Shown: positions 45,001 through 64,000 of the stretch, one piece after another | Position numbering within the stretch: the first letter of the stretch is position 1 | Layout of the letters: each line of letters starts with the position of its first letter | Assembly: GCA_963662715.1 (NCBI GenBank) | Contig: OY759724.1 | Coordinates: 1,178,662-1,242,661, forward strand | Direction: 5' to 3' | From: Candidatus Omnitrophota bacterium | GTDB lineage: Bacteria; Omnitrophota; Gorgyraeia; Zapsychrales; JANLHA01 | DNA: 64,000 bases | Made by a program: the position numbers and the translations under genes | Notes under the pieces: model-generated | Told to the model about the DNA's origin: nothing | Database searches by the model: none | Seen by the model: only the letters and a program-made list of their open reading frames with translations

Positions 45001-48000
45001 AGACTTCTTTATATTTGCTTACTAAGGCTTCTTGGGAAGCGTCCGGGCCTAAAGCTCTTAATGCGTTCTTCACCCTCTGGAACAAGACATCATGTGATTT
45101 CAGCTCCAGTCCGGTTAAAGACATATACAACTGAACTAACTTTCTGAAGTCTACGCTTGATTCCGAACTCATCAGCATATTGATAAATCTTCTCTGTTCC
45201 GTCCCGTCTTTTTTCAATTCAATCTGCCTGAAGGCGTTTACAGCGGCCGGGTTCTTCAAAACCTGACCGGCCACATATCCGGTGTCGCTGGCCTGGGCAA
45301 ACATCATTTCGAACAGGAACTCCTGGGCTCTTTCTGCATAAACATTAGTCTCCTCCTTAATCTCGGCATCTTTTTCATCCCCGCCCTTTAATATCACCAG
45401 GGCCTTTCTCAGGTCTTCACTTAACAACTCTTCTCTTTTCCAAACAAAATTATTAATAAATTCAAGGCGTCGCGATTCCTTTTCGTCTTCTTCCTCGGTA
45501 GCGCTGATCTTTTCCACGGCTTGCTGGAACAATTTAATTGTTTGCTTCAAAATATGATCCACGGCTTCGCTTAAATTATCCTCAATAAATTTCTCGCTGG
45601 ACACCTGATCAGTAACATTTTTCCCTAAATCACCGCGGATCTCTTCAGCCCGCTTGACTTTTTCCTTGGTCCCGGTGAACAAGCCGCTAAAGAAAGATCC
45701 GGCAAAAATACCTGCGCCGGCAAAAGCGAATAAACCGAGGAAGCCGGACGGAAGGAGAGGCAACAGGAACGAACTGATCAGCCACATGCTCACTCCGGCT
45801 CCTGCGAACCAGCCGAAGACCTTGACCTTAGGATTATCTAATCCGCGTCCTGAACCCGAGCCTCCTTTACCGCCGTTCTGAGGATTATCTGATCCTTGTC
45901 CCTGGCTTGAGCCCGAGTCTCCGTTATCGTTGTTCTGAGGAGCCGGCCCGCGGGTATCGTCTCCCGGGAACATCTTTCTTAACTGTCCGCCGATCCAACG
46001 CGGCACGTTGACAATCAAGCCCAGGATCAGGCCAAGGACCGTCAGTGTCGACATGACCAGAGTTCCTGTCATGTAGAGATTCATATGATCTCTTAAGTCC
46101 TGAAGCTTGAACTTGTTCGTCTTCATAAGCGGATAAACGATGATATAAAGCATCAGCGGGATATACGGGTAACCGCCCATAAGCAGGGATAGGCCGACGA
46201 TAACTGCGGTGGTTAAGGCCCATTTCTTGAATCCGATCTTCTTGAAGAACTGCGGATAATGGGCTGTGAAGTGAACCTTGGCCCAGGTCTTGAATCCGAC
46301 TGTTGTCGGAGTTGAACCCGGATTCAGGAGGAACGGCGCAAACATCGAAGCAAAGGCCATCAAGCTCGGGAACAGCGACCATATGGAACCAGGATTCATC
46401 CAGAGGATCGTACCGCTGATGACAAAGAGGATGCTCGGGATGACCCAGCCGTAGCCTAATAAGTTCACCTGTGCGTACAAGTCGCCCTGAGTAAATAATT
46501 TTTTCGAATCAAAGCCCTTCGTCGGTTTAAACGGTACGACAGTGTCGCGGCCTGGCCGACGTCCGGTAGCGATATAATCCGCCCGGTTCACCAAGGCCTT
46601 CTTCACACCGACCGAGAACGCGTTATAAACCAGGGACATGTAGGTGATCGCCAGAAGCGGGAACAGTTTCAGGAACTTCACTGTACCGCGGACCAGACCT
46701 TTCTCCAGAACTGTCTGCAGATAACCGGATGAGGTGATGGCCTGCGATAAGAAGAAGCCGACCAAACCGAAGATAAGCTCGCTCGGGAACCCGGCAAACA
46801 AGCTCATACCGAACAATACGATGGTTAACAGGTATGTGGTATTGGAAATCACGACAAAAGGCTTGCGCAAGAAGTAGCCGATCGAAGCGACGAAGTGGCC
46901 CAGGGAGCGGCTGAAGCCGACGACCTTGGATTTGTTGTGCTGCCGCAGCATATGACCAATGGCCTGTTCAGCGGCACCAGCCCCGAATTTCTCGGAAATA
47001 CCGACCAAACCAACGTAGACCGCTTCACGGCCTTTACCGGCCTGCATCAATTCCGTGTTCGACACTCTTTCACCCATGAGCGTGGCTTTGTAGGCGCCGA
47101 AGATATCTTCATTGACCCACGGAGCGCTGAAGAGACCTAATTGTCTGAACGATCTGCCCCGGACAAAGTCAGGGTGACCGTAATGGTAGCGGATGCCCAT
47201 GAAGTTCAGCACTCTCTGGACCATGGTAACGAACGTATGGTCACCGAAAGCGTGCACCGCACCGGCCGGAGAGAATTCGTCAGTAAAGATATCTTCCGGA
47301 ACACCGACGATCGCGACCTGATCATCCCGGCGGAACTGTTCCATGACGTTCGGAGCCTTAAAGGTTTCTTCAAGGTAAAGATCCTGGTTCATGTCCATGA
47401 CCATGACGATCTGGCCGCGGGTGAAGCGCAGGATATTATTCTGGTTCATCGGTTTACCCTGACCGGCAAACGGATGGCTGTGCAGGCGGATCGGGTTGAG
47501 GCGGACCACGCGGCCGATGGTGTTGCCGTCCCGCTCAAATTTATGCATAACATCCTCACCGTCCTGTACTTCTCCTGCGCGGTACTCAACCAAGGCACCG
47601 GCAAAACCGTTGATCCTATTGTCCGGATTGTGCAGGTAAGCCATTCTCATGGACGGGTATTTCTTCAGGAGCAAGTGAATATCCTGTATCAATAAATGGG
47701 CTTTAGCACTGTCTTCTTGCAGCAAGTCACCGTAAGGCTGGTCACCGGCGACAAACTCAAACTTCTCGTCAACTTTTGCGAGGATCTTTGCTTTGTAATC
47801 ATATGCGTTATGGAGTTTCTCCTGTTGGCCTTCCAGTTCCTTTCTCAATTTTTCAAGTCCGGCGCGGCGCTCAGCCTTGGCTTCCTCATCTTCCGCAGCC
47901 TCTAATTCCTCTTCTGCCGTGGCGATCTTTTCATATTGACTGAATATGTCATTTAGGACTTCTGTTAAGGCAGCCACAGCCTCTATTTCAGCTTTAAGAG

Positions 48001-51000
48001 CTTCTATTTTCTCCTTCTGCTCTTCAATCTGCTGTTCTACAGCGGCGATCTGGATATTTAACAGCTGCTTTTCTTGCGACTCGCTGTCTTTCTTCGCGTT
48101 CATCTTTGCTATTAACTCTTTCAATCCGTCTTCCTGTTCTTCCAGGATTAATTTTTCATGGCCCATTTCCGCTTCGGCTTTCGCTTTCCGGCTCTCCTGG
48201 TCTGCCAGCAGCAAGCCTTCCAGAGTCGGGAAGTTGACCTTGGCCAAGAATTCATACATTTCTCTGTAGCGCATAATACCGCGGACCGAACGGGACAGCG
48301 GCTGGTAGCGGTAAGACACCCATAACCGGACTTCAAACTGCATATCTTCATCGTTGATATCGAGTTTCTGGCCGTAAGTCAATTGGTCCATGTTCTTGAT
48401 ATCATGCATCTTCCTCTCAAATTCCTGCTTCGAGATATTTTTAGCCGCATAATCGGCTTTCACTTCATTTTCCATTCTCTGAACAAAATTCTTCCATTCG
48501 TGCGGGGCTTTGCTGATGATATACGTCAAGAAAGTGGCATTGGTCAGATATCTTTCGTTGATGGCATCATATTCATCAAATGTCTTGTCGCTGAACGGAT
48601 ACACAATGGTTTCAAACAGGAACGGCAGGGCCACACTCATGGTATACATTTTCTCCCAGATCGGAGTCTGATCCATATCCATGAACAAGCTGGAGAGGAA
48701 GTATTTGATACGGGCCTGCACCCTTTCCGTTTCCGGAACGGCTGAGAAGTCAGGCCGTCCTGTAACCTCACCCGTTAAGAAGTTATATTTTTCTTTGTGT
48801 TTTATGTCGTACCGCAATTTATCGGCTTGGTCGTCACTGAGTAAATCATCCTCTCTCAGGGCATTGATGATCATGTTCCAGGCCTCGGCCCAGGCAATCG
48901 TCTTCTGTTCGTCTGTCAGATCCACACGGGACATCACCCAGGTATCCTTGCCCTCTTCATCTTTAACCTTCCTGGCGCTGACGTGGGAGGCCGGCAAGTT
49001 CTTGTTCTTGAACTCTTCGGCGGCGCTTTCCAGGATATCATCAACCGAATCTCCGCCGATCTTCTCCAAGCCGTAATGAGCTAAGATCACGTTCAGGAGC
49101 TTTAAGGCAAGCATTCCGCCCAGGATGATGCCCAAAGCCGGCCAGCTGATGAATCCGAGCGCGGCCGTCGGCCAGAGGAGTTTAACGGCTGTGAACCCGG
49201 CCAGAACATAAAAGGCTTTCGGAACATAATCTTTTAAGGTTTCTGTGAGGGCGGCTCCGACTTTGCCCGTGATGCTGTCTTTTGCCTTGACCTTGCCTTT
49301 GATGCCGGACCAGGTGAGCACGCGGTTGTTACCGTTCCATTTGGCGATGATGTAGCCGAGCGCGCTTTCAATGAGGTAGAAGTAAGCGAAGATATCCAGC
49401 AAGAAGATCATGAAGAACACGGAGAAGGCCCCGGCCAGGAGAATGACATTCCCGAACGGCAGGACAGCGGTTCCCAAGCCCGGCAGCATCCAGGAGCTCT
49501 TGAACACAATACTGAGCGGCACAGCGAGCCATTTCCAGATATACAGGTTGAAGACAAACTTGGCGAGGAAGGACAAGCCCATGACGATACCGGCACGGAT
49601 CTTTCTTCCGGTGTTTCCGTGCAGTTTCTTCGGATTAATTCCGGCATCCAGCGGCTGGATATCCCACTCATCATGATCCAGGGTCTTCTTCTGCGAATAA
49701 ATCTTATCGATCTTCTTGATACCGAAGTACACCAAGATTGCCAGTCCGACAACGATGCCTACACCCGTCAGCCAGGACACTAAGGAGGCGCCGGCCAGGG
49801 CCGGGACCTTCCAGACCCCGCTCCAAATCAGACCGTAAGAGGAGGCAACGATCGTGCCGAGCAGGGTGGCAATGATCTTGTTGAAGTTGATGACGATCTT
49901 GAACCAGCCCAGGAGACCGAACTTGCTGGTCTGCACATCCGGATAAACTTTCCTGATATAGTCGTTGACGCAGATGGCCTTGGCCCCTGGCCCTGCCGGC
50001 AACTTATTGACATTAGCCGTGCGCATAAATTCAAAGGCTTCCTCAACATTTCTGTCAGCTGTCTTGTCCTTCTTTACATCCCTATAAATTCCAACAATAT
50101 CCTTTCTCACCTGCTCTTCGATCAGGTCGCGTCCGGTCTGGCCGTTTTCATCCGGCGTCTCATACCAGGTAATGAACTTCGGTGAACGGAAGTACATTTC
50201 AACTTCGTCGTGCTGAATGACATCGGCGTTAGTGCGACCGCCCTTGGCTTTAGCGACTCTCTGGTGCAGGGACAGGATGACAGACCAGAGCCGGGCCTCC
50301 TGCTTCTCAATGACCTCGCCGATCTTCTTTTGACCGTAGCGTCTGAGTCTCAAGGCTTTATAGAATCGGTAGAAATCAACGGCAGATGTGACGTGCGCTG
50401 TCTTATCAGATGCCAAATTCACGAGATAGTAGAGATACATTTCTTCAAGACCGAAGTGATTGTCGATCTGGTCGAGTTCATACTTCAGGACTTCTGCATC
50501 AAGCGCTTTGCCCATGATCCTCTCGAACCAGTCCCGGTAGCGCTTGAAGAATTCCTTGATAAACTCTTCTTCGGAAACACCGCTGTACAGGTCATTCTTC
50601 ATTTCGCTGGTCAGCATGGTCTTGGCCATCAGGGCCACAGATTCCTGGAAGCCGTAAGCCGGCAGGTATTTGATCTTCGCCAGGATTTCTTCAATATTCT
50701 TAATACCCTTCCGGTCCAGTTTCACTTCTTCCGATTGAGGTGCAGGCTTCTTGTCCTTCTTCAGCCCTTTCTTCCGTAATATCTGGCTGATCCAGGCAAC
50801 GATCTTTCCGATGATCAAGATACCCAAGAGGTAGGCTCCGCCCAAGCCGCCGACGACCTTCCATGACCGGCCTTCTTCAAGCCATTTCTGGAACAGTTTC
50901 GGACGGGCCTTATCGATCAGGTCATCATCGTTATAGGTATATTCCTGTTCATAAATCTGTCCTGGAGATTCATCGTCTTTGACCAACCGGTAATTTTCCG

Positions 51001-54000
51001 GTTTGAACTGGCCGGGAGCCACGCCTTCGGCTTCGTCAACCAGAATGCGTGTTCCCTGCAGGTAGGTCTGCTGACCTTCGGACTGGCCGTTTTCAGATTC
51101 TTCATCCTGAACAGCAAAGAATTCCAGGTCGCGGTAAACCTTGATCACATGGCCTTCATCGGTAATGGCGGCCCACGGTTTTCTGTATGGAGACTGCGTA
51201 TCATAAAGAACCGTCTCTTCACCCTTTGTGGCCACCCCGAGCATCTGCAGCATGATCTGCATGGTCACATGAGCATAATTTTCGGTCAACAACTGTCCGG
51301 CCGGTGTATAAACGATTTCACGCTGGAACGGAGCGTCCAAGACGAAGTATTCATAACCGCGGACCTGGCTGAGCGTCTTGCCGTCGTTATAAGAATACTG
51401 CAGGACAGGCAAGACCTTATCGGCGTCTGTTCCGAACACTTCGGCGATGCTTGACTTGATATCCTCCGGATTGACAATCAGGCGGATCTCTGTTTCATCG
51501 GTATACGGCTCGGCCCAGCCTCTCGCCAGCAATTTCTCTGAAATTTCTTCCCAGTCAAGGCCTTCTTCTCTCTCGACCTGCTGCTGTGTCAGGACCTGCG
51601 GATCGACGATCTTGACCGTCATCTGCTCACCTCTTCCGCCGGTCAGGATGAACTTCCGGCCGTCATTGCCCAGGACATCTCTCCGGTAATAATCTTCCTC
51701 CTCGGTCGGAGAACGGAAAACCCGGACTTCTTTCAAGCCGTTGCCGTCCTTGAACACGATCGTTCCCGGATTGATTCCGACTCTCAGATCAACTTCAATA
51801 TCTTCCCCGTTATTGACCTTGAGCTTGTGTCCTTCCAGCCACAGGACATTAATACCGAAATCTTTGTTGGCATAAAGCGTGGCGATATCGCGGCCGCGGC
51901 TGTCATTCGGAGTCAGGTAATGGTAAAGCTGCTTACCTGTCTTGTCCGGATTATATCGCGGCCGGCCCAGCAGAGGCAGGAGCGTCTTGGCATCCGCACC
52001 GAACACTTCCGTCATCTCCGCTCTCACGTCATTCAGGTTGACGATCAGGTGAATCTCCTCAAGGCCTGTGCGCTGAGCCCACCCGTTGTGGAGCAGTTTT
52101 TCGGAGACATCGCTCCAGTCAAGCTCGGCTCTCTCGATCTGATTTTTGGTCAGATAACCGTTCTCAAGGATAACCGGTGTTTCCTCAACGATATCAAACA
52201 ATGTCGCGCGGGAAATACCCATCTTGGCCAGATGCTGCCAGAGATAAGCATTTTCAAGTCCGAAGCGGACGAGCGCTGTTCTGTTGTAGGATCTTTCCAT
52301 TTCCTCATTAAACAACGCCTCTGCCTGTACCTTCAGGCCAAGCGCTTCAGCCTCTTCAATACTTAACGTTCTGAAGAATGTTTCTATCTGATATTCAACC
52401 CGCTCTTCCGCTTTCTCTCCCGCAGGCCCTTCAATTCTGGTAATCACGTCATCGAGCTTCACGGACCGTTTCACTTCACCCGTTCTCTCATCAAACTCAA
52501 GACCCACGATAATTTCCACCAGGTCTCTTTCAAGATTATCCGGGTTCTGGGCCGGGACAGCTTCTTCCCTGACCGTAATGATCTTTCTCTTCACCGGATC
52601 ATGCGGGATTCGGTATGTCGTGGTTCGGACATTGTCAACCGTTGTCTCTGTCGAAACCTCAAAGATCAGATCCGACAAATCATCCACTTTACTGAACCGG
52701 GACATATCAAGGTTCAGCAAGGCTTCTCTGACCAAATCATGCTGGATAAGAGCGGCGAAATCGATCTGCTGAATATCTCCGGCCCTGACACGGCCCCTAT
52801 TTTCCGTATCCCAGACTTTGACCCAGCCTGAACCGTTCGCGCGGATCTCAACCTCGCTGGTCTCATGCTTGCCTGTCGGAGAATATTCTTTTCTTTCCTG
52901 GATTCTGAAGATGCTCTTTTCACCCGCCCGCTCACCAAGCTGTTCGTTTTTGTCAGAATCCTTAACCAAGGCGAAGAGCTGTTCCTGATTTTCAAAGTTC
53001 TCCGGAATCTGGATAGACCCGATCTGTTCTACCATAATCTTGCCCTTAACGATTTCTCTGCGTGTGACAAGAGCGCTTCCGCCGAGTTTCTCCTGGTCTC
53101 TCAGGTTAATGAATGTCTGGACGCGGTTCTCCCTGGTTCCGGTATAGCTGTAAACTCCCGTGACATTTTCGACTTCAACCTCTGTGCCGTCTGCCTGACG
53201 GACCGTTACGGTGAGACCTGTCTCTTTCTTGTAATCCGTGGAATAAAGCTCTTCGCCCGTTTCCGGATCAAAATAACGGATCTCTTCGCGCTCAGGATCT
53301 GTGCTCTGCAGCAGTTCGCCCTGGGCATTGTACACGTCATATCTTTCCGTATCAGCCGCGAAATCTCTGACCGTGACATATCTGTTGCCTTCGGCGTCAA
53401 CACGAGTTGTCAGAGATTCTCCGATGACCGGGCCTGTTATGTCGACTGTTCCGTCAGCATTGACCTCATAGTCATCCAGCCAGTAAACCTTGCCGACGTT
53501 TTCGGAATCAAAGATTTCAATCTTCGACTCTTCCTGATCCACGGCCAGGTACAAGCGGGCGCCCCTGTTTCCTGGGAGGGTAACGTCAAGCACGCCGAAC
53601 TTGTTCACGTATCTTGCGTTCCAGCGGGCCTTTTCATAATTGGCGACATCCATCAATTCATCCATGGTCATGGACATGGCCGTGTTATCCTGATCCGTGA
53701 AGAAGAATTCCGTCTGCTGTCTCTCTGCCACCATGTCTTCGCCGGCAAAGCTGTAGTCCACAATACCTCTCGTCATGATGTCAGCATCTTTCATCGATTC
53801 GATTCTTTCGCTCAAACCGCTCAACCGCTCTTCGGAAGCCCCTCTCTGTGTTTCTGCGACACGCTTACGTTCTTCTAAGACTTTCTTCTGCAATTCAAGC
53901 GCCGTATCTCCTCGATCCTCTTCCGGCGAATTATACGGATCAACAAAGAGGCTGATAATCCATTCAATGAAGTCCATGAAGCGGTCCAGCAGGGACGGAT

Positions 54001-57000
54001 TCCTGTCTACGGCGGCTGCTTCTGCGGCAAGCCGTTCTTCCGTTTCTTTCGCGATCCGCTCTTCGATCTCGGCGATTTCGGCTTCCAGTTCGCGGATTCT
54101 TTCAGTATATTCCTCAATTTCTTTCTGGGCTTCTTCCGCCTGTGCCGTCAAGACCGGCAACATATCAATGACCACCGTTGACTTCAGAGCCCTGAGCTCT
54201 TCACTGATATATCCGTCTTCCTGTGAATAGTACTGGATGGTTTCTGATTCCAGACGGCCTTCATACTGACCGGTCAGATATTGCGGTGAATAATACGGAT
54301 AACCTGCGCCTTCATACTCAAGGTGCTGATCTGTCGTTCTGTATCTGTCAGAGTGATCCAGCGTCATCAGTCTTTCATATCTCTCATTGCTGATGATCTG
54401 GTAATCGAACAAGGTGCCCTGCCGCAGGATTCTCACCCAGTTGCCGCTCAACCGGAACTGTTTGACTTCGTCTTTATAATCCTGGCTCAGTTCGATGACA
54501 ATGCGTCGGTTGCCGGCGATATCGACAAACGTGTCGGCCTCGCGGGTATCCGGCGTTGCCAGACGTGACAGCATGCGCGGTCCGCCGAACCTGGACAAGG
54601 ACCACTGCAAAGTCCACTTAGACCCGTATTTATCCATGAACGATGTCAACCGCTCCTTGATTTCCCCGGCCGATAAGTCAACGGCTTTGTCTTCGCCGGC
54701 CTCACGGAGGAGTTCGCTCAAGAAGCTTATGGTCTCGGCATTGAAGGACACCGTCTCGATATAGGAGGCGATGTTCTCGCGGTCAACCGCAAAGATATCT
54801 TTCAGCATCTCGACCTGGTCTTTTGCCGCGAAGAGCGTTCCGTGACCGTTGCCCATCGGAATACCGAATTTATCTGAAGAAATTTCTTCGAACAGATCTT
54901 TTCCGGAAACATCTTCGCTGCTCCTTGCCGCCCCGAACTCGATGATAGCGCCGTCATATTCTCCGCCGACAACCACAAGTTTGCGCAATTCTTTACCGTC
55001 TTCGTCATAACGTCCTAACGGAACGAAATCTATGGTTCCGTTAGCCAGGTTGGAATCCGTTAACTCAAGCAGCGTTGCCAACGTTAAGCTGAACGAACCT
55101 GTTCCTTTTAACCGTAATGCGCCAATGTTGCCTTCGATGACGGCCCCGTCATAAATTCCGCCTCTCACGACCGTTCTGGTTACGCTTTCTCCGTTAACCG
55201 TAACGCTCTCGGTCTCAAGATAGCCGTTGCTCTTATCCCCATCCGCCAGGATTTCCAGGATGTCCTTCGTCAATCTCACCGGCTCGGCATTCTCCAGCAT
55301 CAACATATGAGAACTGCTTAACAATTCGAGCTCTCTCCTCATCGTCATTAAGTTGTCGTCCACAAACACGGCCTGGTTGTATCCTTCCGGCATCTCATTT
55401 CTCGTGTCTTCGCTGAGATCTTCGAAGTCTTGCGGCAATATGACGCGGGCCTTGCCCTCTTTCAGGTCAACCTTATACTCTACTGTCTCGCCGGCTCCGT
55501 TGACGTAGGTCGCCTTCATGTAGAAGGTCACCTGCTCTGTCTCTTCATTGATCGTACGGAAAATACCCACAGCATTAAACTGTTCTCTATAGTCTTCATA
55601 AGTGTCTCTGATGGACAAGCCGTAAGAGAGATCTGCTTCTGGGATGGCAAACAGCGGCGTACCGTCCACTAATTTTGCAACGCCGCCGAGGGTTTCCGCC
55701 GTAAAGGCCTCGATACCGCGGTCGACCAGATCAGCGCTCGGGATCACCACATCGCCTTGCGGAGTAATGGAAAGGAGGATATTGCTGTACACCGACTTCC
55801 GGCTCTTGATCAATATCCCTTCGATTTCTTCGAATTGATCCTCTTCCAGACCCGGGAACCATGCCTTGAATTCCGCATCCAGCTCTTCGAATTCCGGAGC
55901 CACCCGCATGGCTTCCGATACATAGCCTTTCTCGATGAGTCTCGGAATAATCGTTGCCGCATCAAGCCCGGCTCTTTCAAACGGCTGGGCTGTCAGGATG
56001 CCGCGGCCGGAGCTCAAGGTCATCTCACCCGTGCCGTTGAGGTAGCTGCCGAAGATCTCTTCATCATCCTCGTTGAATCCGGTGGCCACGCCCAGCAACC
56101 GTTTATTTTCTTTATCCTGATCTTCAATATCCTTGCCTTTGATGAGCCGTCTTAACTGCTCCCAGGCGACAGAAACAAAATCATATTTAAGGTTGGCAGA
56201 CGGCTCACCGGTTGTGGAATATCGCGCTTCATATTCAAGTTCTTTCGTAATGTTTCTCCGGACACTGGCGGTCGCGCCGTAATCGCCGTACTGGTTCACG
56301 AAGGCTCCAAGGCTGATGCCCTTCTTGCTATACTGCACGCCATATGTTTCAAGATCATTTTCCCTCTGGTAGTAACCGGAGAACGGCCCGACGTTGCTTC
56401 TCAGGCTTAACCGGTCAGAATCGCCGAAGGCCTGATCCACGGACATGCTGAAAGTCTTCCAGCTGTATGTGGCCCCTAAGAGCGCGTAATACCGAGTGTA
56501 ATCCTCCCAGAGGTCATGGACGAAACCGTCGCTTTCTTCCCTGACCCCGGAAACGCGTACGCTGAACTGATGTGCGCTATTCTCATTTGTCAAAGCCTGC
56601 TCGATTGTGATCTTCTGGTAATTGACCTTGTCATCAACGCCGAACGTGAGATCTTGTTCATCGATCGCCGTTTGCCCGGTCAGCGGATCAACGATATAAA
56701 CATCTCCCACCTCGGCTCTGTATCCATCTATGTACCCGGCTTCGGCGCTGATGGTCGTCTTGTTTATCTTGACTTCGACATACCCTTCGACACCTTTGGT
56801 TTCCATCTCTTCGCCTTCAACATTGAATTTCCAGAACGGAGCGAGACCGGCATAGACTTCCGCGTCGCCGACTTCCGTACGGTAAGCCAGGACGTCCACC
56901 AGGAGGATAGCGGATTCTTCCTGATCCTCACCGTCATCCGGGTCGGCGGCGTTCTGCAGGTAACGGTAAGATTCTGTATAACCGACGGAGAGGTTATGGC

Positions 57001-60000
57001 TAAACGTCGTATTGTCTGCGCCGGAGAGGTCAACGCTCGCCCGGACGTAGCGGTTTTCAGGAGCGTTTTCGTTCTGAGCCTGGAAGGTTCCGGCTTCCAA
57101 ATCTACGCCCGGAACGGCATTATGAACCGAGAACTGCTGGAAGGTGACGGTGGCTTCACCGTTGAGGTTGACCACGTCAATCGTGCCGGACTGAATCACC
57201 GGCTGGCCGTTGACCATGGCCACGCGGCCGTAAAGTTTCTTGTTCACGAACACTTCATCGCCAATCTTGATCACCGGCGGCGGTGAACGCGTCATGCGGG
57301 CGATGAAGTTGTTGATGGCTCTAACATGTATTTCTTTGTCTTCAACGCTCTCTGAACTCTCTTCAACAGCTTTGATTAGGTACTGTCTCAAGGCGACCAA
57401 TTGATCGTTATAGTCATTCGCCGCATCGGCAACGGCATTAACCTGCCTCTTCGCGTCGAGTTTAAGCTGTTCATAATCCTCCTCAGCCTCCGCCAGCTTG
57501 TTGGCTTCTCTGAGATTGGTGATCTCAGCCTGAATCATCGGCAGCAAGCCGGCCGTCATCATATCAAAGGCAGGATCGCGTCCTTCTCCTGTTCTCTCAT
57601 CAACAGCTTTTAACGAAGCCAGGGCGTTCTCGGCTTCTCTGTCCAGGACATCGCCGATTTCCTCACCGGCGCCTTCCTTGAAGTACTGGCCATTAGCGAT
57701 TAACGTGTTGATCTCTTCTACGATCCTCAACCGCTCCGTCAAGATAGCCTGGTTCGCTTCAAAGAAGGCGATCTTGCGCTCAATAATCTGATCCACCGTC
57801 TCACTGGACCGACCTTCCTGCAGGGCCAGATCTCTTTCGACCTGTCTGTGAACACCGTAGTCCGGATTGTCATGGAAAGCTCTTTCCTGGGACAAGGTCG
57901 GGATAAACTCGTTCACGAATTGTGTGGTGGCTTCGCTGAGAGGCCCGGGTCCGCGGTCGCCGTTGTAAGCCACGACTGTTGACAAGTATGTCTCTGCTTC
58001 CGCCGTACGGCTGTATCGGCCCATGGTCTCTTTGGCCCGCGGCTGGTCATCATCAATATGCCAGTATGTCTTAACTTCCTCAATCGTCTTGACCTTTTCA
58101 GGATCTTGTCCTGCCTTGCGCTTAATCGGGATAATGAAGAATTCATCGGTGAAATCAACGACATTCAGTTCGATCGACCTCCGGAGCAGGGATTGTTTTT
58201 CTCTGAGGAGGCCAGCTTCTGTTTCCGCTAATTCACGGCGGCGGTCTAACATGCTGGTGACTGTTTCGGCGGCAATATTTCCTCCCTGATCGCTGATCTC
58301 ATAAAGTCTCTGATAGTAGCGCAGTTCTTGCAGGTTCCGGTTGGCTAAGACCAGCTCTCTGCGGGTGGCGGACAACCAATCATTGATCAGCGCATTATAA
58401 TCGCTTTGGCCTCTCGTATCCCGCTCTAAGCTTTCCAGCTGCTCGATACCTTCTTCCAGGCGCTGGATATACCCCATTCTCTCAATGTCATCCTTGCCAT
58501 GAGCTCTATCATATAAGCCGTCATCGCCGGTAATGCCTTTGGATCTGTCTCCGTAATACTGGATGCCTTCCCAAATTTCTTCGCGTTTCGGCAAGAGGTT
58601 CTCGAAATCTCTTTCATCCCACAAGGCCTCTATGGCAACCAGACGGCCGGGTTTCGGATTGCCTTCGTCGTCATATTCGATTTCTCCCGTGATAGGATCT
58701 AACTCATACGGCCCTTCAATGGACTGAATCTGATAGCCCGCTCGTGTAATGGACAGGTTAACAGCCGCTTTCCAGCCTTCTGTGTCACCTTCCTCCGGCA
58801 GGTTGCCTTCGGAATCTCTTTCTCCCAACCCTAAGCCCTGGGCGGCCAAGACCATGTTCTCGGAAACGCCGTTCTGCAAGTTGCGCAAAGTCGTCAAAGC
58901 ATCGGCGATATCAGCCAAATCTGTTCTTAAATCTTCAGCCGTTTCTACGCCGAACAGCGAGCCTGTGCCTCGCTCACGGTATTCGTTGATCACATCCGTC
59001 AAGACCTTAACCACATCACCGTCTTCTTCCTCGATCTTTTCTCTTAATTCGGCAAAGTATTTCTCACCGCTGACGTCGTTAGGATCTTCGGAAAGGGCGA
59101 TCATTCTCAAATATTTCTCCAAGGCTGTCCCTTCAATCAGCTTGAAGTCTTGTTCCGCTCCGCTCTGCAGGAAGCTCTTCCAGGCGGCTAACCGCTGCTG
59201 GACAACGTCATCGTCTCTTTCAACCATTTGTTTCTCAAGCTCCTGCAGTTCATTGTCCAGCGTCCCCAACATGGCATTCAGTTCATCGACCAGGCCTTCC
59301 TGGCTGTCTCTGGCCTCGGTGAGCTTCGCTATGATCTCATTCAGAGCCGTATCCTCGCTATCGAGTTTTAACAGGGTCGCCAGTCTCTGGATGTTCTGAA
59401 TATCGGCCTGAGAATACTTCACCTGGTCAAAAGCGGATAACTCTGTATTCACTTCCGGTTCGGAAACCGGCAGTTCAACGCCGTCTTCGACATCCATGAT
59501 CGGAGTGCGGTCTGTATACTGATATGTTCCATCGGCATTCTGGACAGCGACCAGGTTGCCTCTGTCAGCCAGTTCATTGTAAACCTTGGTGAATCCTGGA
59601 CCGTATTCGAATACGCTGACGTTTCCTGTACGGCGGTTGATCAGCAGGGTGTTCGGCAGCACGTCGTCCGCCTGGTACTCGATAATCTTTCTGGCCACTT
59701 CTGTCTGGCCGTCCTGCTTGGTCCACTGCATCAGCAGAGACATATATTCATCCTGCTCGCGGCTGATATAGTCGTTGACGATTTCCTGTTCGTTGAAGAT
59801 ATAGCGTGAACCTTCTCTCGGGTTGGATACCGAATGAACCATGCCCACCGGAACGCCTCTTTCCGGTCTCAAGAAGAGGACGCCGACCTCACCCTTGATG
59901 GTTCTCTTATCCTGTAATGTCCAGTATTGTGTGCTGACTCTGTCTTCCTCTTCCCTCAAGGAGACGACCTCGTTGTCAAGCTGGGCACCGCCGATAACCA

Positions 60001-63000
60001 GTTTTCTGTACGGCGGCAGGCGGGTCTTCTTCACAACCTCGTCCGCCGCATACTTAATGGCGCCCTTCTCTAAGTTCGTTAATATCGACTCGTTGGTGAC
60101 TGTGCTTTCCGGAATAGCGATCAACATTTCCGAGAACTCTTTATCACGCACAATCAGAATGGTCTGATTCTCTGAGGCCTCAACGATCTCGGAAGAGTTT
60201 TCAATTCTTAACGGATCGGTTACGCGGACGTTAACGATACGGGCCGGTTCCGTCATTTGGTCCGTCGGATCAAAGACCACCATATCGATGCGTTCGCCGA
60301 TTTCGGCCGGGATACGACCTAAGATGGCATCGACTTCCCTGCGGCTTAAGTCGGCGGCATTGTACTGGATTCTTTCACCCCGGTTGTTCAGATATCCGCT
60401 TTCTTCGATCTCGTTCAAAATGGTGTTGTAGATGATCTTGGTCTGTCCGTTCACATCGGCTGTGAGCGTTCCTTCTTCAATATCCAGGAGTTGATCCTGC
60501 GTCAGCTGGTCTGTCCTCAGATAATTTCCTTCGGTGTCATAAACAGCCATCAAGGCCGCAATATCATCTGCCGGATTCGTATGCATCCAGAGGTTCAGTT
60601 CAGCCGGCTCGGCTCCGAAGATCACGATCGGATGGACATAGCGGACTTCTTTTTCTCCATTATCTCCGCCTTCACCGCCGTCCGAACCGCCGATTTCGTT
60701 GATGATAAAGTGCGGATCAATTGCGACTTCAACCGGGTTGCGGCCTAAGTAGTAGGTCATGCCGTCACGCTCAAACAGTTTGTTCGGCAGCACGGCCGGC
60801 AGGTTCTCTTCGAAATAATGCTCGGCAATGATTTCCAGTGTCACCGGGTTGATGCTGACAGCCACCGGACGGGTCTCTTTGTTCTTGCCGAACATCGCCT
60901 CAAAGAGTCTCTGGTTAAAGACCTCGGACGGCAAGACATACATTTCGCCTTGCTCTCTGTACGGGAAGCGGTTGACCGGATCTTCCATGAAGGCTTTCGT
61001 GACCGGGGTCTTCGCTTCCTTCAGAGCCGCGGATGTCTCTTGCAGGGTTTCTTCCAGCTCTGCCCTTTCAGTCTCATCTGTTGTCTGGCTCAACTGGGCC
61101 TGTATCTGGACAATCTCTTCCTGCAATTCTTCAACGGCTTCGATGTTATACCAGTAGCGGAGCGTGATGAATACCGTTTCTTTTCTGTCTTCCGGATCCT
61201 CGGCTCTCAAATTGTATCGATACCCGAAATCAAACCAGTCTGCCGGATAAACATTGTCCTCTATTTCAATTGTTTCTCCTTCTTTTCCTCTCTGAACAGC
61301 ATAGATAATGCTCGGGTCTGTGTTCTTTTTAGCCTCTAAGGTATAATCGACTTCCCGTCGGCCGATGAACGGTACGGCCGGATATTTATGGCCTTCGTAA
61401 ACTGAATCCTTATCAGGATCACCAAAGATGCTCCATACGCGGCCGAAAACTTCCTGGACAAAGTCGCCGATCAAGTGCGACAACGGGATGTCAGCTTTGC
61501 GGCCCGTGCGGATATCAGAGAACTTGGCTTCCGTGCCTTCATCGTTAAGCGGAATAATTTCCGGACTGGCCTTAAGCTCTGTTGTCAGATCCACGAACGG
61601 CCGCAAGACGTCCAGGGCTCCGCGGGTCTTATCCAGTCTCCAGAAAGGATGTTCTCTCTGAACCGCGATACCGCCCACGCCTTCCATGTTGAGGTAAACC
61701 TTCTCCATGCCTTCGTTATAAATTTCTGATGCGGCCTGAGCCCAAGCGACATAAGTGAAGGCTTGGGTAGCGATGGAAGCATCTGCAATGCTTTCCGCCC
61801 CGGTGGCCATATTGATAATCTGGGCATATTTATTGAGCGGTGTATCGAGCCCGATCATGAAATCAAGCGTGCCGTCTTCCCAAAGCTGGATGGAATGCCC
61901 GAAAAGCTTGTTGCCCGGATTCCAGTTGATACCGATTCCGGCGAAGAGGCTGGCCACCTTCTGCTGATCCTGCTGGGTCAATCCATTGGCGAAGTTTTGC
62001 GGCGTGGAGGTGAGAACCTGGTTATAAACGTCAAAGACCTGATATAAGGCTTCCTGCCGTCTGCGTTCATCGTTACGGGCATCGCCTTCTGTCTTCATCT
62101 GGATCTGTCTCAGCAGTTGTCTGGCCTTAAGGATATCTTCTTCTAATTCCTGAATACCTTCGCGGACATCTTCTAATCTGTCTTCCGGTGTCACTTCTTC
62201 CGGAGCGTATCTGCCGGCTTCAACGTTAAAGAGTCTTCTCTGTTCACGATCTATCTGCTGGCGGATCTTCTCTGTCTGGACTTTCGTCGTTTCGCCCCGT
62301 TCGCTTAAGACCTGAAGTTCATCTTCTTCCAGGTACGGATTCATGAGCGACAAGGTCTCATCATTAATCTTCAGCTTAAAGACATATTCGGACTGGGCTG
62401 TTGTCTCGGTTCTAAACGTGCCCGCCAAGCCCAGGATCGTGCCGGCCTTGATCTCCTGGCCGACCAAGTTAACGTTGGTGCCTGTGAGATGACCGAAGAT
62501 CTGCTGGACTTTGACTGTCTTGCCTGACCCTTCTTCCACTGTTTCGGATTCAATGATAATTTCTTCACCGAACGGACCAGGCTCAACGCTAATCACCGTA
62601 CCATCCATATAGCTCCGGACTGTGCTCTGTTCCGGCACAATATGCTTCACAAACAGGCCTTGTGCTCTGATCTGATATTCAGTATTCACAATCAAGCCTT
62701 CCGTCGCCGCTGTTGTTTCCGGAGTTTCTGACGGCACAACGCGGCCGGCAAGTTCTGAGGCTACAAATCTCGGAGTATCAATATTATCGAATTCATCAAC
62801 CAAGGCGTAAATTGGGTTCTTGCTGGCAAACCACAGCATCGTTTGCATACGGTCGACCTCGGCAACTTCAACCGCCTGTCTGAACAATCGGTAGACAATC
62901 TGGTTCAGCTCTTCTCTCGTCTTGAACTTGTCTTCCTGCGAAACAATGAAGACCATACCTTGTTTCGGTCCGACCGGCTCATCGGTAAAGGATTCCTCGT

Positions 63001-64000
63001 CCAAGATAGCGTTAATGTCTGTTATATCTGATTCAGTTAAGTTTGTTAACGGCTCAACGCCATCTGTTGTGATCTTCATCAAGCCGGCGCCGGTTCGGTA
63101 AATCAGGTACGGATCCTGCTGATCCGGAGTGGCGACGCCGGCGCCTTCTGTTCTGAACTGTGCGTGATCATCGATTCTCAGGATCGACATGACCGGCAAG
63201 GCTTCCTTCAGCTCAAAGTTCTGCTTAGCAATCTCCATTCTCTCTCTCAAGCTCAAGTTCGCAATAACGTCATGCTGTTCGACTTTGGCATCCGCCTCCG
63301 TTTCGCTCATAAACCAGATGCCTTCTTCTCTATAAGATTCGTCAATCGCTTTGAATTCACCGTCAAGTCTGCCTAACCGGGTCGGGACCGTTACCTCTTG
63401 TCCGCTGGTCAACCGTGTTCTTAACCGGCCAAGATTATCCACATCAAGATTTTCGAAATAGTTCATAATTGTTCTGACATACTTCGGTGTTTCCTGGTTC
63501 TTGGAGACATCACCCTTAATAACTCTCGGGTAATACCCGGCAGAATACCCCGGTCCGGCGTTGTATCCGGCCAAGGTGTACTGCAGAAGCTCTCTTAACG
63601 TAAGGTCTTTGTTCTCATACTTGCTGTTCAACATGGTATCCATAACCTTGGCCACATAAGCGACGCCAACGGTGATATTCTTCTCGCGGTCGAACGCTTC
63701 ACCATAGGACCATCTGCTGTCGATAAGGCCTCGGCTGTAAAGCGTGTTAACCATGGAAGACCAGGTGCCCGGCATGATCTGCATAATGCCTGTTGCGCCG
63801 GCCCGGCTGACAGCTCTCGGTTTGAAGCGGCTTTCCTGATACATCATGGAAATAATGAATTTCTCCAATTCGTCCTTTGTAAATAACGGCTGGCCGTTGT
63901 TGTCTTCAAATTCTTCGGCGACCTGTTTAAAGATCGGGTAGTTCTTCCAGGCATCTTCGAGGATATCATCGAGTTCACGGATATCATGGCTAACCGGTGT
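1..64000 (-). CDS. Internal fragment (about 21,333 codons) of a giant multidomain membrane protein; neither start nor stop codon lies in the window
   Basis: Minus-strand frame with codon low coordinates = 2 mod 3. Hand translation at about 45 checkpoints (for example 1076, 4682, 11762, 13322, 22316, 30002, 36722 to 36976, 40034, 47162 to 47490, 50876, 63962) gave coherent, stop-free protein in this same frame every time. None of the minus-strand ORFs in the supplied track is in this frame, which is expected if the frame has no internal stops, since the track only lists complete Met-to-stop ORFs. Recognisable enzyme motifs occur throughout, all in this frame. Confidence 0.85.
3060..4690 (-). 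other. GT9-family glycosyltransferase domain (LPS heptosyltransferase-like)
   Basis: C-terminal signature KLINSADVVVTPDTYTMHAATAMGKIVVTPWG (compare L-I-x-N-D-S-G-x-M-H-L-A-A-A-L-G-x-P-x-V-x-L-F-G; checked at 3605 to 3770). N-terminal RVLILSPTKRDYGVELIES Rossmann-like start. Confidence 0.5.
7250..8210 (-). other. Possible GT-A-fold glycosyltransferase-like segment inside a large unassigned module (5830 to 8660)
   Basis: GDLDVVVTVPFYSEGDTIDNVLEAI (checked at 8101 to 8200) resembles the GT2 N-terminus. An ATYDADL acidic motif lies about 270 aa downstream, which is further than usual for a DxD motif. Confidence 0.25.
8680..9520 (-). other. HD-domain phosphohydrolase
   Basis: LSLQIAAMGHDIERY (H…HD, checked at 9178 to 9215) and downstream VAFLIRHHDAG (checked at about 8990 to 9040). 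Confidence 0.55.
9854..11525 (-). repeat. Copy A of the 1.67 kb near-identical direct duplication (modules X and Y), 19,733 nt away from copy B
   Basis: As above. Its high-coordinate (N-terminal) edge coincides with an SSP[LI] junction (GSSPLEERETSPRPWNG against TSSPIEERETSPRPWNG). Confidence 0.9.
11830..12260 (-). repeat. 4 to 5 in-frame tandem copies of a unit of about 96 nt / 32 aa (VGASTMMSSTPLTQEEYTAWKQAQAAEEVSSP). A related VGAST(L/M)MSSSPL-EEY-AW unit recurs at about 36130 to 36290 and 42868 to 43230
   Basis: gacatcatcgttgacgcgcccaccgg recurs at 12036, 12132 and 12228; diverged copies at about 11842 and 11943. Confidence 0.8.
13290..13850 (-). repeat. About three in-frame tandem copies of a 213 nt / 71 aa unit (…GEVSSPVAGAGTNNERVKGQGTYTVAAVLLKGETGDAVAAGRSSGVREERSELSERIAGNRTKTTDLLSEA…)
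   Basis: Codon-checked at 13322 to 13381. The plus-strand artefact ORFs at 13344..13532 and 13557..13745 are identical to each other (213 nt offset). A diverged single copy lies at about 37600 to 37700. Confidence 0.85.
13850..14510 (-). other. GHKL-type ATPase domain (HATPase_c-like, anti-sigma-kinase-like)
   Basis: NIAQHGSGFGLILLE … IHVIVLDQGKGF … GGNFGHGLTLT (N-box, DxGxG and GxGL boxes; the last checked at 14041 to 14070). Confidence 0.45.
14520..15490 (-). repeat. Paralogous module copy 2 (diverged duplicate of 17370 to 18340)
   Basis: As above. Both copies begin right after an SSP[IV] junction and end at one. Confidence 0.8.
15500..16650 (-). other. Alpha/beta-hydrolase-fold domain (esterase/lipase-like)
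   Basis: Oxyanion-hole-like PVILFIHGNGRG and nucleophile elbow GVVTHSNGGTIF (x-H-S-x-G, checked at 15961 to 16060). Confidence 0.5.
17370..18340 (-). repeat. Paralogous module copy 1 (about 325 aa, unknown function; AKGEEDEDQLSLFGPTKGQIRK…MAGINAIR…)
   Basis: About 85 % identical at the amino-acid level to 14520 to 15490. The antisense ORFs in the track (14877..15164 and 17724..18011) are also similar to each other. Confidence 0.8.
19040..20280 (-). other. Histidine kinase core (HisKA-type H-box + HATPase_c)
   Basis: H-box ILTHDLRSLLFAV (checked at 19921 to 19980); N/G boxes LKNLISNAYSHAG, ISFRDNGQGF, EDEAHGLGLYLSRKIIEE (checked at 19141 to 19220). Confidence 0.65.
21180..22430 (-). other. 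GT30-family glycosyltransferase domain, KdtA/WaaA (Kdo transferase)-like
   Basis: RKSIVVSACGVGEVINSISLIEALQQTYPDYRIVLLTNST (compare IWxHAASVGE…P…ILLTT in KdtA; checked at 22205 to 22325) and the C-terminal LGGHNPLEPANFAKPVIVGPYTENF (compare GGHNxLEPAA…P…GPH; checked at 21361 to 21440). Confidence 0.6.
22900..23900 (-). other. Radical SAM domain
   Basis: PVIQIMSGCNRGCLICLFG, a canonical CX3CX2C cluster (checked at about 23785 to 23830). Confidence 0.6.
25750..26090 (-). other. Minimal nucleotidyltransferase (Pol-beta superfamily) domain
   Basis: RLVYAFGSSLWSTEPNDIDVVIVAD (G-S-x(9-13)-D-x-D signature, checked at 25865 to 25990). Confidence 0.45.
26400..27960 (-). other. GT4-family (GT-B fold) glycosyltransferase domain
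   Basis: YSSTFEAFGNGLIEGIAAQRPVIVYP (E-x-F-G-x-x-x-x-E-x-x-A motif, checked at 26585 to 26690) plus an N-terminal Rossmann-like half. Confidence 0.6.
28020..28640 (-). other. Class I SAM-dependent methyltransferase-like domain
   Basis: PESRVVSVGPGDYAISLKGAHHVETF (G-x-G-x-G-like motif I, checked at 28501 to 28580) and DVVIMMSVLSYPG. Confidence 0.35.
29587..31258 (-). repeat. Copy B of a 1.67 kb near-identical direct duplication (about 98 to 99 % nt identity with 9854 to 11525); encodes unknown module X (about 390 aa) + SSSPV + most of unknown module Y (about 160 aa)
   Basis: Direct nucleotide comparison. The plus-strand artefact ORFs in the track are near-identical pairwise (9770/29636, 10436/30170, 10690/30424, 10727/30461, 11304/31038, 11345/31079). 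Identity begins at gattgatgccccagttgttcagg and ends at gactagtctccctctcttc. Confidence 0.9.
31380..32080 (-). other. Nudix hydrolase domain preceded by a winged-helix-like segment
   Basis: Perfect Nudix box GHPRIGEAGIKAIQREFQEELGV (Gx5Ex7REUxEExGU, checked at 31685 to 31780). Upstream IIQAFGQQDAVVLRHLARKLGIRTSSLTKLI looks like an HTH. Confidence 0.7.
32620..33400 (-). other. HAD-superfamily phosphatase domain (sugar-phosphate phosphatase-like)
   Basis: Motif I RMILSDYDGTLAA (DxDGT, checked at 33352 to 33400) and motif IV VLVLGDNYDPENALSDIGM (GDxxND-like, checked at 32701 to 32780). Confidence 0.6.
33780..34450 (-). other. Type I phosphoribosyltransferase-like domain
   Basis: KDKTVVVLDDHAGSRLTLLELQYLLLNAGAKRVIILAL (checked at 33901 to 33960): hydrophobic x4, then D-D, then a small-residue loop, as in the PRPP-binding motif. 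Confidence 0.45.
34700..35930 (-). other. Nucleotidyltransferase domain, CCA-adding / poly(A) polymerase head type
   Basis: VKGSVFLYGWMVRDLLRGERPEHLGYLMSED … DLTINRM (checked at 35765 to 35845) matches the G-G-x-V-R-D…D-D/E-D and RDFTIN motifs of PolyA_pol-type nucleotidyltransferases. Confidence 0.5.
36690..37760 (-). other. Module with two predicted TM helices flanking a zinc-metallopeptidase-type HExxH motif (H-E-T-A-H at 37193 to 37207)
   Basis: VLKTLLMISTFVMVLFGFS (about 37480 to 37540), then ALVAHETAHNLYPLSRGLGFVEH, then MFEIPGILALLGTFILLFKL (36797 to 36856, translated codon by codon). The module also holds a diverged copy of the NNERVKGQGTY repeat (about 37620 to 37700). Confidence 0.4.
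37790..38500 (-). other. Arginase/deacetylase-fold domain (UPF0489-like), putative
   Basis: KILHIDAHADAEMTRRY (DAHxD motif, checked at 38161 to 38260) and a downstream FNVLDVDLDVLRGL acidic motif. Confidence 0.3.
38960..39980 (-). other. SAM-dependent methyltransferase, MidA/DUF185-like
   Basis: AKFSVVEMGAGNGTYALNIMSYLKEYQPQLFQALEYVIVEFSSNL (checked at 39781 to 39830): E-x-G-A/P-G-x-G-T-L/Y motif followed by IVE-S. Family assignment is tentative. Confidence 0.4.
40290..40520 (-). other. ACT regulatory domain
   Basis: GKMTLHLPYDRIGLLKDIVAVITQHLGNVHEQKVEGDNLVIDMDI (checked at 40385 to 40510). It matches the D-R-x-G-L-L-x-D-I pattern at the C-terminus of RelA/SpoT homologs. Confidence 0.5.
40780..40990 (-). 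other. TGS domain, as found after RelA/SpoT synthetase domains
   Basis: IRGRQIRSEKYELQNGDIVGINPLTP (codon-checked at 40861 to 40920). It lies between the synthetase and ACT domains in the usual order. Confidence 0.45.
41000..42060 (-). other. RelA/SpoT-family (p)ppGpp synthetase domain (NT_RelSpo-like); no HD hydrolase motif seen upstream
   Basis: ESGVKFSMSSRVKSVYSIAEKFERQEKRAKDDPLYDLLGLHVVVKGEIQDYWEALTLIDE matches the synthetase signature GRxKxxxSIxxKMxRK…IxDLxGxRxI. Checked at about 41540 to 41600. Confidence 0.6.
42100..42790 (-). other. Class I SAM-dependent methyltransferase domain
   Basis: Motif I peptide AALLDIGAGDNAFANTIAA, codon-checked at about 42560 to 42610. Bounded by SSP junctions at 42085 and the repeats at 42868. 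Confidence 0.55.
42868..43230 (-). repeat. Three in-frame tandem copies of a 120 nt / 40 aa unit (VGASTLMSSSPLSAEEYAAYLASKEADTVSSSIKEAAKST)
   Basis: Exact 120 nt periodicity: gagctcatcaacgtggaagcgccg at 42867, 42987 and 43107. Confidence 0.85.
43600..45650 (-). other. Long K/E-rich alpha-helical or coiled-coil region; no enzyme motif found
   Basis: Translation is dominated by E, K, L and A with heptad-like spacing. It ends at the tandem junction motifs KASSSPVLEEVSSPV (43535 to 43580). Confidence 0.4.
45680..46940 (-). other. C-terminal transmembrane bundle of the glucan-synthase module, plus a G/S/N/Q-rich low-complexity loop (about 45830 to 45960)
   Basis: FVASIGYFLRKPFVVISNTTYLLTIVLFGMSLFAGF, LFPLLAITYMSLVYNAFSV, GWVIPSILFVISGTILWM, LFPSLMALASMFAPFLL, ALTTAVIVGLSLLMGGYPYIPLMLYIIVYPL, LVMSTLTVLGLILGLIVNV. 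Then PQNNDNGDSGSSQGQGSDNPQNGGKGGSGSG, then GWFAGAGVSMWLISSFLLPLLPSGFLGLFAFAGAGIFAGSFF. Confidence 0.6.
46950..49060 (-). other. GT48-type 1,3-beta-glucan synthase catalytic domain (FKS1 / callose-synthase-like)
   Basis: Codon-checked peptide at 47162 to 47490: GQGKPMNQNNILRFTRGQIVMVMDMNQDLYLEE…IVGVPEDIFTDEFSPAGAVHAFGDHTFVT…RYHYGHPDF…NEDIFGAY…QAGKGRE…KFGAGAAEQ. It is colinear with the FKS1 hallmarks GKPENQNHAIIFTRGEY-Q-ID-NQDNYLEE / ILGAREYIFSE / AAGKEQTFGT / KLHYGHPDF / NEDIYAG / QCGKGRDLGF / KIGAGMGEQ. It sits between two TM bundles, as in FKS proteins. Confidence 0.75.
49080..50870 (-). other. N-terminal transmembrane bundle of the glucan-synthase module (at least 6 predicted helices)
   Basis: Hydrophobic segments of 20 to 25 residues: VVGGLGGAYLLGILIIGKIVAWI, ATLLGTIVASSYGLIWSGVW, LAGASLVSWLTGVGIVVGLAILVYF, IVMGLSFLAKFVFNLYIW, LPFGNVILLAGAFSVFFMIFLLDIFAYFYLI, FISWPALGIILGGMLALKLLNVILA. 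Confidence 0.6.
50900..62330 (-). other. Large region without the SSP junction motif, probably extracytoplasmic: coiled coils, beta-rich stretches, diverged internal repeats; no enzyme family recognised
   Basis: Translation has long heptad-like E/K/L/Q runs (about 58300 to 59400, 61050 to 61200) and alternating hydrophobic/polar beta-like stretches (about 56500 to 57300). There are no SSP[VIL] junctions, unlike the downstream part of the protein. Confidence 0.4.
51380..52250 (-). repeat. Two diverged copies of a unit of about 70 aa (…WSDVSEKLLHNGWAQRTGLEEIHLIVNLNDVRAEMTEVFGADAKTLLPLLG… / …WEEISEKLLARGWAEPYTDETEIRLIVNPEDIKSSIAEVFGTDADKVLPVLQ…)
   Basis: Visible both at nucleotide level (51400 to 51600 against 51960 to 52170) and in the translation. 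Confidence 0.5.
62340..62690 (-). other. Degenerate LytM / peptidase M23-like domain; the catalytic HxH is replaced, so probably non-catalytic (EnvC/NlpD-like)
   Basis: SYMDGTVISVEPGPFGEEIIIE ... IFGHLTGTNVNLVGQEIKAGTILGLAGTFRTETTAQSEYVFKLKINDETLSLMNPY lines up with the M23 core (xHL..v.VkvGq.VkaGq.IG.vGsTG.stGPHLHFE). The HLHFE position reads SEYVFKL instead. Confidence 0.55.
63480..63970 (-). other. Lytic transglycosylase domain (SLT / GH23 family)
   Basis: Translated peptide MMYQESRFKPRAVSRAGATGIMQIMPGTW (catalytic Glu in ES-RF; AxSxxGAxGLMQ-like core) followed by LAGYNAGPGY (AYNAG motif). Checked codon by codon at 63541 to 63840. Confidence 0.8.

Follow-up and report, generated by a model that had tools for sequence, protein, structure and literature searches.

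An SLT Transglycosylase Domain Paired with a Degenerate LytM Domain inside a Giant Membrane Protein of an Omnitrophota Bacterium

We analyzed a 64,000-nucleotide stretch of DNA (the window) from a Candidatus Omnitrophota bacterium (GenBank assembly GCA_963662715.1, contig OY759724.1, positions 1,178,662 to 1,242,661 of the forward strand). On its minus strand, the window is occupied by a single stop-free frame (2..64000, 21,333 codons) that is open at both window ends. It belongs to a giant membrane-bound multi-enzyme protein, longer than 21,333 residues and of a type known from Omnitrophota. Near the high-numbered end of the window, this frame encodes a family-1 lytic transglycosylase (SLT) domain that is followed, after a conserved linker, by a domain of the LytM/M23 fold in which the zinc ligands have been replaced. 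The reading that we favor, with a probability of roughly 0.45, is that the two domains form an internal, extracytoplasmic peptidoglycan-remodeling module, probably one that opens the producer's own wall. The SLT domain would cut murein glycan strands from an extracytoplasmic segment of the chain. The LytM-fold domain would most likely be a noncatalytic partner that holds the wall, tunes the SLT domain in cis as in PrgK, or docks another autolysin as DipM, EnvC, and NlpD do. A local opening of the producer's sacculus would let a long external segment pass through the wall or settle in it, in parallel with the dedicated transglycosylases of type III and type IV secretion systems and of flagella. 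The domain pair had been noticed in a preliminary description made from the sequence alone, which placed it at 62340-63970 (codons ∼11-554 of the giant frame). Residues are numbered such that residue i is the codon at window position 64000-3(i-1), counting down.

An Apparently Competent SLT Domain

The SLT domain covers residues 44-185 (63446..63871, minus strand). Pfam SLT (PF01464) matches residues 46-151 with an E-value of 6.5e-17 and 61.6 bits against a cut-off of 21.3, and the same stretch is matched by the NCBIfam models for Slt70, MltC, MltF, and flagellar transglycosylase as well as by endolysin and tail-lysin families of PHROG. Residues 46-130 align with the solved structures of MltC and Slt70. 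In these alignments E56, within the motif MYQESRF, falls on E478 of Escherichia coli Slt70, the catalytic acid, and aligns to MltC too; the codons of E56-S57, GAA AGC, were verified at 63830..63835 (minus strand). The catalytic ES pair proposed in the preliminary description is thus present, with its glutamate unsubstituted. The other family-1 motifs are also kept: GIMQ (residues 71-74), AGYNAG (residues 144-149, in AGYNAGPG), and the ETPKYV helix. Across the family sequences that we collected, E-S is invariant (nine of nine), and G-[LI]-x-Q and A-Y-N-A-G are nearly so. Because the domain keeps every family-1 catalytic motif, the MurNAc-GlcNAc bond of murein is its most likely cleavage site; it may act as a lytic transglycosylase or as a muramidase, like the SLT domain of PrgK.

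A LytM-Fold Domain without Its Zinc Ligands

The second domain lies at residues 446-555 (62336..62665, minus strand). Pfam Peptidase_M23 matches residues 455-546 with an E-value of 5.9e-5 and 23.6 bits, under the cut-off of 28.7, so that of the two Pfam searches suggested beforehand, the one for SLT succeeded outright and the one for M23 fell short. A PHROG metallo-endopeptidase family matches residues 456-578 (E 2.7e-4). Because the Pfam match was marginal, we aligned the few relatives that our searches had returned and compared this family alignment by hhalign with canonical M23 sequences, which gave a probability of 95.3% and an E-value of 2.3e-8. The canonical alignment comprised lysostaphin and three sequences taken from a database; the residue mapping is independent of lysostaphin. 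An AlphaFold2 model of residues 420-575, computed from four family sequences with no canonical M23 sequence as input, has a beta core at residues ∼449-549 with a pLDDT of about 80-88. All of the best eight PDB structures that Foldseek matched to this model, each with a probability of 1.00, belong to the M23/LytM group; the proteins are EnpA, phi29 gp13, lysostaphin, ShyA, the degenerate SpoIIQ, and Csd1-Csd2. A viral structure library likewise returned M23 peptidases down the list, among them long virion proteins that carry SLT and M23 together. A profile search of the PDB with alignment A1, which spans the linker and the LytM-like region, gave marginal M23 matches only (E about 0.1). The orthologous domain of a related locus, L005, passes the Pfam M23 cut-off with 32.6 bits. 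Judged from the model and the profile comparisons, the assignment to the M23/LytM fold appears sound.

The hhalign mapping, with the residues verified, places Q447 at the His and K452 at the Asp of HxxxD (62645..62662, minus strand), and E538-Y539-V540 at HxH (62381..62389, minus strand); V540 stands for the second His, a zinc ligand, and E538 for one catalytic His. The loss of HxH that had been read from SEYVFKL in the place of PHLHFE is borne out by this mapping, and the loss extends to HxxxD. The His of the "xHL" motif is kept as H504. Because all three zinc ligands are replaced, the domain is predicted to be unable to bind zinc or cut peptides and would not be a catalytic member of M23. 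The same state recurs among the relatives: in all seven family sequences that span the LytM-like region, from five independent lineages, V or L replaces the second His of HxH, and K, E, F, or Y replaces the Asp of HxxxD; the overall identity across lineages is 21-35%. Since the E-S pair of the SLT domain is invariant while in every lineage the LytM domain is missing the zinc ligand of HxH and the Asp of HxxxD, the alignments point to an old degenerate state in which the fold was retained for a noncatalytic function, not to recent decay.

What such a domain might do was first proposed by likeness to the EnvC/NlpD-type activators of amidases. The likeness holds for the degenerate LytM fold, which EnvC, NlpD, and DipM share, and is otherwise one of analogy. 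Taken literally, it would have the LytM domain switch on a separate amidase in trans, with the SLT domain working independently beside it; DipM, in which one and the same dead LytM domain is reported to act on several autolysins (PMC10336132), lends this idea some appeal. We consider it improbable. Pfam tiling, which took in all 21,333 residues, found no amidase domain, and by Pfam there is neither an EnvC-like coiled coil nor an NlpD-like LysM domain beside the LytM domain. Moreover, the linkage to SLT is fixed in all lineages, including a stand-alone form of 606 residues, which argues for the SLT domain as the partner.

The two domains had been described as adjacent. They are in fact separated by about 260 residues (residues 186-445; 62666..63445, minus strand) that are conserved in alignment A1 and form a family-specific linker with an alpha/beta core at residues ∼245-395 and the motif PYLIYR-GAGLMKIT. 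The AlphaFold model of the linker is of low to moderate confidence (mean pLDDT 54.6), and a Foldseek search with it returned no PDB match better than E 0.8. On the other side of the LytM-like domain, residues ∼575-700 are charged and helix-prone.

Relatives Place the Module Inside the Chain

The SLT/LytM module is rare in public data. A phmmer search with residues 1-600 against 1.84 billion representative proteins returned just 11 matches below 1e-10, a word-index protein search gave only three weak generic SLT matches, and a profile search with alignment A1 gave none. Single-protein scans of GTDB genomes and IMG/VR found no close relatives, and an exact 50-mer taken at the window edge had no match among JGI metagenome contigs. 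When GTDB genomes were scanned for the pattern of a three-sequence alignment covering residues 601-1000 (A5), three loci were recovered, of which L005 and L006 come from metagenome-assembled genomes labeled "uncultured Planctomycetales bacterium" and L007 from one labeled "Candidatus Omnitrophota bacterium". A fourth locus, L001 (ENA ERZ1286166 contig_433), belongs to the same lineage as L005; its giant gene is split into many short called ORFs by frameshifts, probably errors of long-read assembly, and the proteins P0004 and P0005 are fragments from this contig. A histidinol dehydrogenase gene (hisD) lies ∼2.5 kb beyond the last homologous piece of L001.

These loci argue against the preliminary description's view of the module as the N-terminal head of the protein. 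In L005 and L007, one stop-free frame of about 7,000 codons takes up the entire 21 kb of the locus; L006 is open too, but for a shift of frame close to a stretch of 100 N. Counted in codons of each locus, the SLT E-S pair is at position 2733 in L005 and at position 2884 in both L006 and L007, with at least 2,700 residues upstream of the SLT domain in all three. These upstream residues carry a conserved FHMWLISMEIG motif and include hydrophobic clusters (residues 962-1839 in L005 and 2192-2570 in L007) that correspond to transmembrane blocks. The same internal arrangement is found in the proteins P0006, P0008, and P0011, the last a further informative phmmer match; the SLT domain is at residue 1499 in P0006, 619 in P0007, and 2557 in P0008. 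The window's own frame has no stop up to base 64000, and homology to the relatives extends to codon 2-13. Ahead of the SLT domain, this frame offers a single start-like codon, the TTG of codon 45, which already falls within the conserved region. We considered a stop in L001 ∼30 codons before the SLT domain as a mark of the true N-terminus and rejected it: L001 is riddled with frameshifts, and the short-read assembly of the same lineage, L005, is open at that point and continues for 2,700 more codons, so the stop is an assembly error.

Conservation runs far beyond the module. By tblastn, the window protein is colinear with L005 over residues 13-2610 (56171..63964, minus strand; 29.6% identity over 2,772 columns, E 0), and colinear pieces are present in L001, L006, and L007 as well. 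The alignments suggest that the SLT/LytM module opens a conserved block of ∼2,600 residues that is shared among giant genes. Pfam tiling found no further domain in residues 556-4380.

The module also occurs by itself. P0013 (L002, positions 179-1999) is a complete stand-alone gene of 606 residues, with a hydrophobic N-terminal segment, the SLT domain, the same linker, and the same degenerate LytM domain; its contig is 2.1 kb long and comes from run SRR13374099. Because the module stands alone there, with an N-terminal hydrophobic anchor and a preceding Shine-Dalgarno-like site (AGGAAGG), it appears to be a self-contained unit.

The conservation pattern of the family bears on whether the module is simply an evolutionary leftover that the giant gene captured from a phage (a tail or tape-measure lysin) or from a conjugation system (a hydrolase), with a decayed and functionless LytM domain and perhaps a functionless SLT domain too. 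Such an origin would fit the PHROG matches of the SLT domain, of which the best is a 1,946-position "endolysin" profile and the others are tail or internal virion lysins, and combinations of SLT and M23 are common in phage virion proteins. We nevertheless regard it as very unlikely. The invariance of the SLT motifs and a LytM fold kept at 21-35% identity imply long purifying selection, the IMG/VR scan found no relatives in viral contigs, and the related gene in L001 neighbors the chromosomal hisD. Within residues 1-7,750, the PHROG matches fall on the SLT domain and the M23-like domain only, apart from a single weak one that has no known function. We likewise rejected a phage or polyvalent-protein origin of the whole gene, on the PHROG scan of these first 7,750 residues and the lack of related viral contigs.

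Predicted Membrane Topology and the Wall Probably Opened

Hydropathy peaks in the giant frame cluster at residues 4380-4973, 5716-6108, and 8819-9066. The first transmembrane helix in the window (residues 4380-4405; 50786..50863, minus strand) is followed by a strongly basic flank, RKKGLKKDKK, and closes a segment of at least 4,380 residues in which the module sits. About six helices precede a catalytic domain of the FKS type (residues ∼5090-5730; ∼46810-48730, minus strand; Pfam Glucan_synthase, GT48, E 4.8e-50, profile positions 3-509 of 819), which has a transmembrane cluster on either side, and nucleotide- and SAM-dependent enzymes of cytoplasmic type come after it. The FKS catalytic domain is cytoplasmic in fungal FKS1. 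Because of the RKKGLKKDKK flank, the positive-inside rule puts the C-terminal side of helix 4380-4405 in the cytoplasm and residues 1-4380 outside. Pfam tiling of residues 1-4380 found no nucleotide-dependent enzyme domain. We infer that this segment, and with it the module, is probably extracytoplasmic.

The preliminary description had left two uses for such a peptidoglycan-directed unit, remodeling of the cell's own wall or attack on that of a prey or host. Its general claim agrees with our results, which describe an apparently competent transglycosylase together with a dead LytM domain within what is predicted to be a giant envelope protein. Between the two uses, we favor the producer's own wall because the chain looks inner-membrane-anchored, because Omnitrophota keep the full murein pathway (10.64898/2026.06.07.730766), and because the sacculus has to accommodate, or let through, a segment of over 4,000 residues. 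The relatives, in addition, place other wall modules at one and the same spot: in L005, a PG_binding_1 domain precedes the SLT domain by ∼90 residues (codons ∼2615-2646; 23.9 bits against a cut-off of 23), and in P0008 (L003), a weak match to the GH24 lysozyme family Phage_lysozyme lies ∼200 residues ahead of the SLT domain (E 6.6e-4; YQDTKGYNTIGWGFNL). In the gene studied here, the equivalent spot falls past the window edge.

Several points weigh against an own-wall module. The relatives are only 23-35% identical to the window protein, and the Peptidase_M23 score of the window's own domain is the subthreshold one (23.6 against 28.7 bits). The topology was derived from a hydropathy scan plus the positive-inside rule, for a chain whose true N-terminus is missing, and the helix count in the block at residues 4702-4973 is ambiguous. 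Published work on Omnitrophota giants, furthermore, favors a role against prey (10.1101/2023.11.21.568195).

That role is the most serious competitor, although we hold it to be less likely than action on the producer's own wall. Here, a surface-exposed or delivered SLT domain would breach the peptidoglycan of a prey or host, or the pseudomurein of an archaeal one, and the dead LytM domain would serve as a grip on the wall. West-Roberts et al. propose wall degradation in predation for the Omnitrophota giants and note SLT domains in them (10.1101/2023.11.21.568195). The predicted LytM fold, too, matches virion and tail lysins of phages that pair SLT or lysozyme with M23, such as phi29 gp13, long SLT+M23 cyanophage proteins, and SPbeta YomI. 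Wall-piercing phage modules, however, usually keep an active M23 domain, and here activity appears lost in all lineages. Phage M23 domains are generally active endopeptidases. The module also lies between transmembrane blocks of an apparently inner-membrane-anchored chain, so that reaching a prey wall would require export across the outer membrane. As for archaeal prey, pseudomurein as a target is speculation in print, and we know of no SLT enzyme that cuts it, which counts against that version.

A broader and more speculative proposal, to which we give little weight, takes in the whole conserved block. The block may be a self-contained "wall-crossing chassis" that acts in cis to cut and thread its own polypeptide, tens of thousands of residues long, through the sacculus, or that pierces a prey wall in the manner of a phage tape-measure protein, bringing the attached train of enzymes along. 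Its parts would be the multi-pass membrane region, the wall-binding or lysozyme domain, the SLT domain, the new alpha/beta domain, the dead LytM domain, and ∼2,000 domain-free residues. Omnitrophota-like bacteria would share this chassis and append a variable enzyme cargo downstream of it.

Comparison with Known Systems

For the own-wall module that we prefer, PrgK and DipM are closer precedents than EnvC and NlpD. PrgK, of the type IV secretion system of Enterococcus faecalis pCF10, is membrane-anchored; its degenerate LytM domain is metal-free in the crystal, its SLT domain is the only active hydrolase, a muramidase, and LytM and CHAP domains damp that SLT domain (PMC11323569). The protein described here resembles PrgK in being a membrane-anchored chain that joins an SLT domain to a LytM domain lacking both HxxxD and HxH, the anchor being provided by the upstream transmembrane blocks in the relatives and by the hydrophobic N-terminal segment in P0013. 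The purpose of PrgK, a local opening of the wall for an envelope-spanning machine, is also the one that we propose. The differences are several. The order of domains is LytM-SLT-CHAP in PrgK and SLT-linker-LytM here, no Pfam tile matches CHAP, and the window contains the giant gene only, with no type IV secretion genes. Our module is moreover embedded thousands of residues inside a giant protein, and we detected no sequence similarity to PrgK past the level of Pfam domains.

In Caulobacter crescentus, the dead LytM domain of DipM binds and stimulates soluble lytic transglycosylases (PMC10336132). DipM, EnvC, and NlpD share with our protein a catalytically dead LytM domain that in their case is a regulator, and by analogy a regulatory role may apply here. 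Theirs are separate proteins that act in trans and carry LysM or coiled-coil regions, whereas here the LytM domain is fused in cis to the SLT domain. Among phage virion lysins, phi29 gp13 (PDB 3csq), SPbeta YomI/CwlP, and a 1,034-residue protein of cyanophage S-CBP4 likewise combine a glycan cleaver and an M23 fold on one long chain. Those proteins are parts of virions; in ours the metal site is lost, and no phage context was detected in the first 7,750 residues or in viral contigs.

Among giant proteins, the "Archaeovorins" have been reported with SLT as a "less common" domain (10.1101/2023.11.21.568195), and the "multi-enzyme metabolic cluster" is a class of membrane-anchored Omnitrophota giants (10.64898/2026.06.07.730766). 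The window protein matches the Omnitrophota giants in length (more than 10,000 residues), in membrane anchoring, and in its tiled methyltransferase, NUDIX, GT1, radical SAM, and HATPase domains; it differs in that neither a SecA-like helicase nor HEAT repeats were detected in the window. An M23/LytM domain is not mentioned in either report (10.1101/2023.11.21.568195 and 10.64898/2026.06.07.730766).

What was already known, then, is the pairing of SLT with a degenerate LytM domain (PrgK), the control of transglycosylases by LytM (DipM), the presence of SLT in Omnitrophota giants, and the giant-gene class itself. New are the degenerate LytM partner, the family-specific linker domain, and the fixed internal position at the head of a ∼2,600-residue block. 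With these, the region is to be read as an internal module, and degenerate LytM joins the list of giant-protein domains. A conserved wall-cutting unit that has a dead peptidase as its built-in partner and directly follows the blocks that span the membrane bears concretely on how bacteria place polypeptides of 20,000-150,000 residues in or across the envelope. At about 600 residues, and found also as a stand-alone gene, the module is small enough for expression.

Domain Content of the Giant Frame

Pfam tiling of the giant frame recovered about 15 distinct enzyme families, all on the minus strand. The first downstream of residue 4380 is the Glucan_synthase domain described above, related to the FKS/callose 1,3-beta-glucan synthases; to our knowledge, a 1,3-beta-glucan synthase domain of this eukaryote type is unusual in a bacterial protein. 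A RelA/SpoT synthetase-like domain follows at residues ∼7470-7600 (∼41200-41600; Pfam E 2.6e-10, TIGR00691 E 1.7e-17). After it, on the same chain, come ACT, Methyltransf_28 (E 3.4e-51), UPF0489, PRTase, NUDIX, and GT1 domains and, further along, radical SAM, a Kdo-transferase-like GT30, HATPase_c, HD, and GT9.

Cysteine makes up just 0.1% of the residues of the giant frame. At residues ∼17,250-17,370 (window ∼11900-12250, minus strand), a charged low-complexity stretch gives spurious weak matches to DFRP_C, Plus-3, VPg, and SHOCT. Low complexity is also seen in a relative: residues 1-1900 of P0008 (L003), ahead of its transmembrane block, contain near-identical tandem repeats of ∼190 residues and Ser/Val-rich sequence. 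The sole other long ORF in the window, of 337 residues, runs antisense within the giant frame (52865-53878, plus strand) and is probably spurious.

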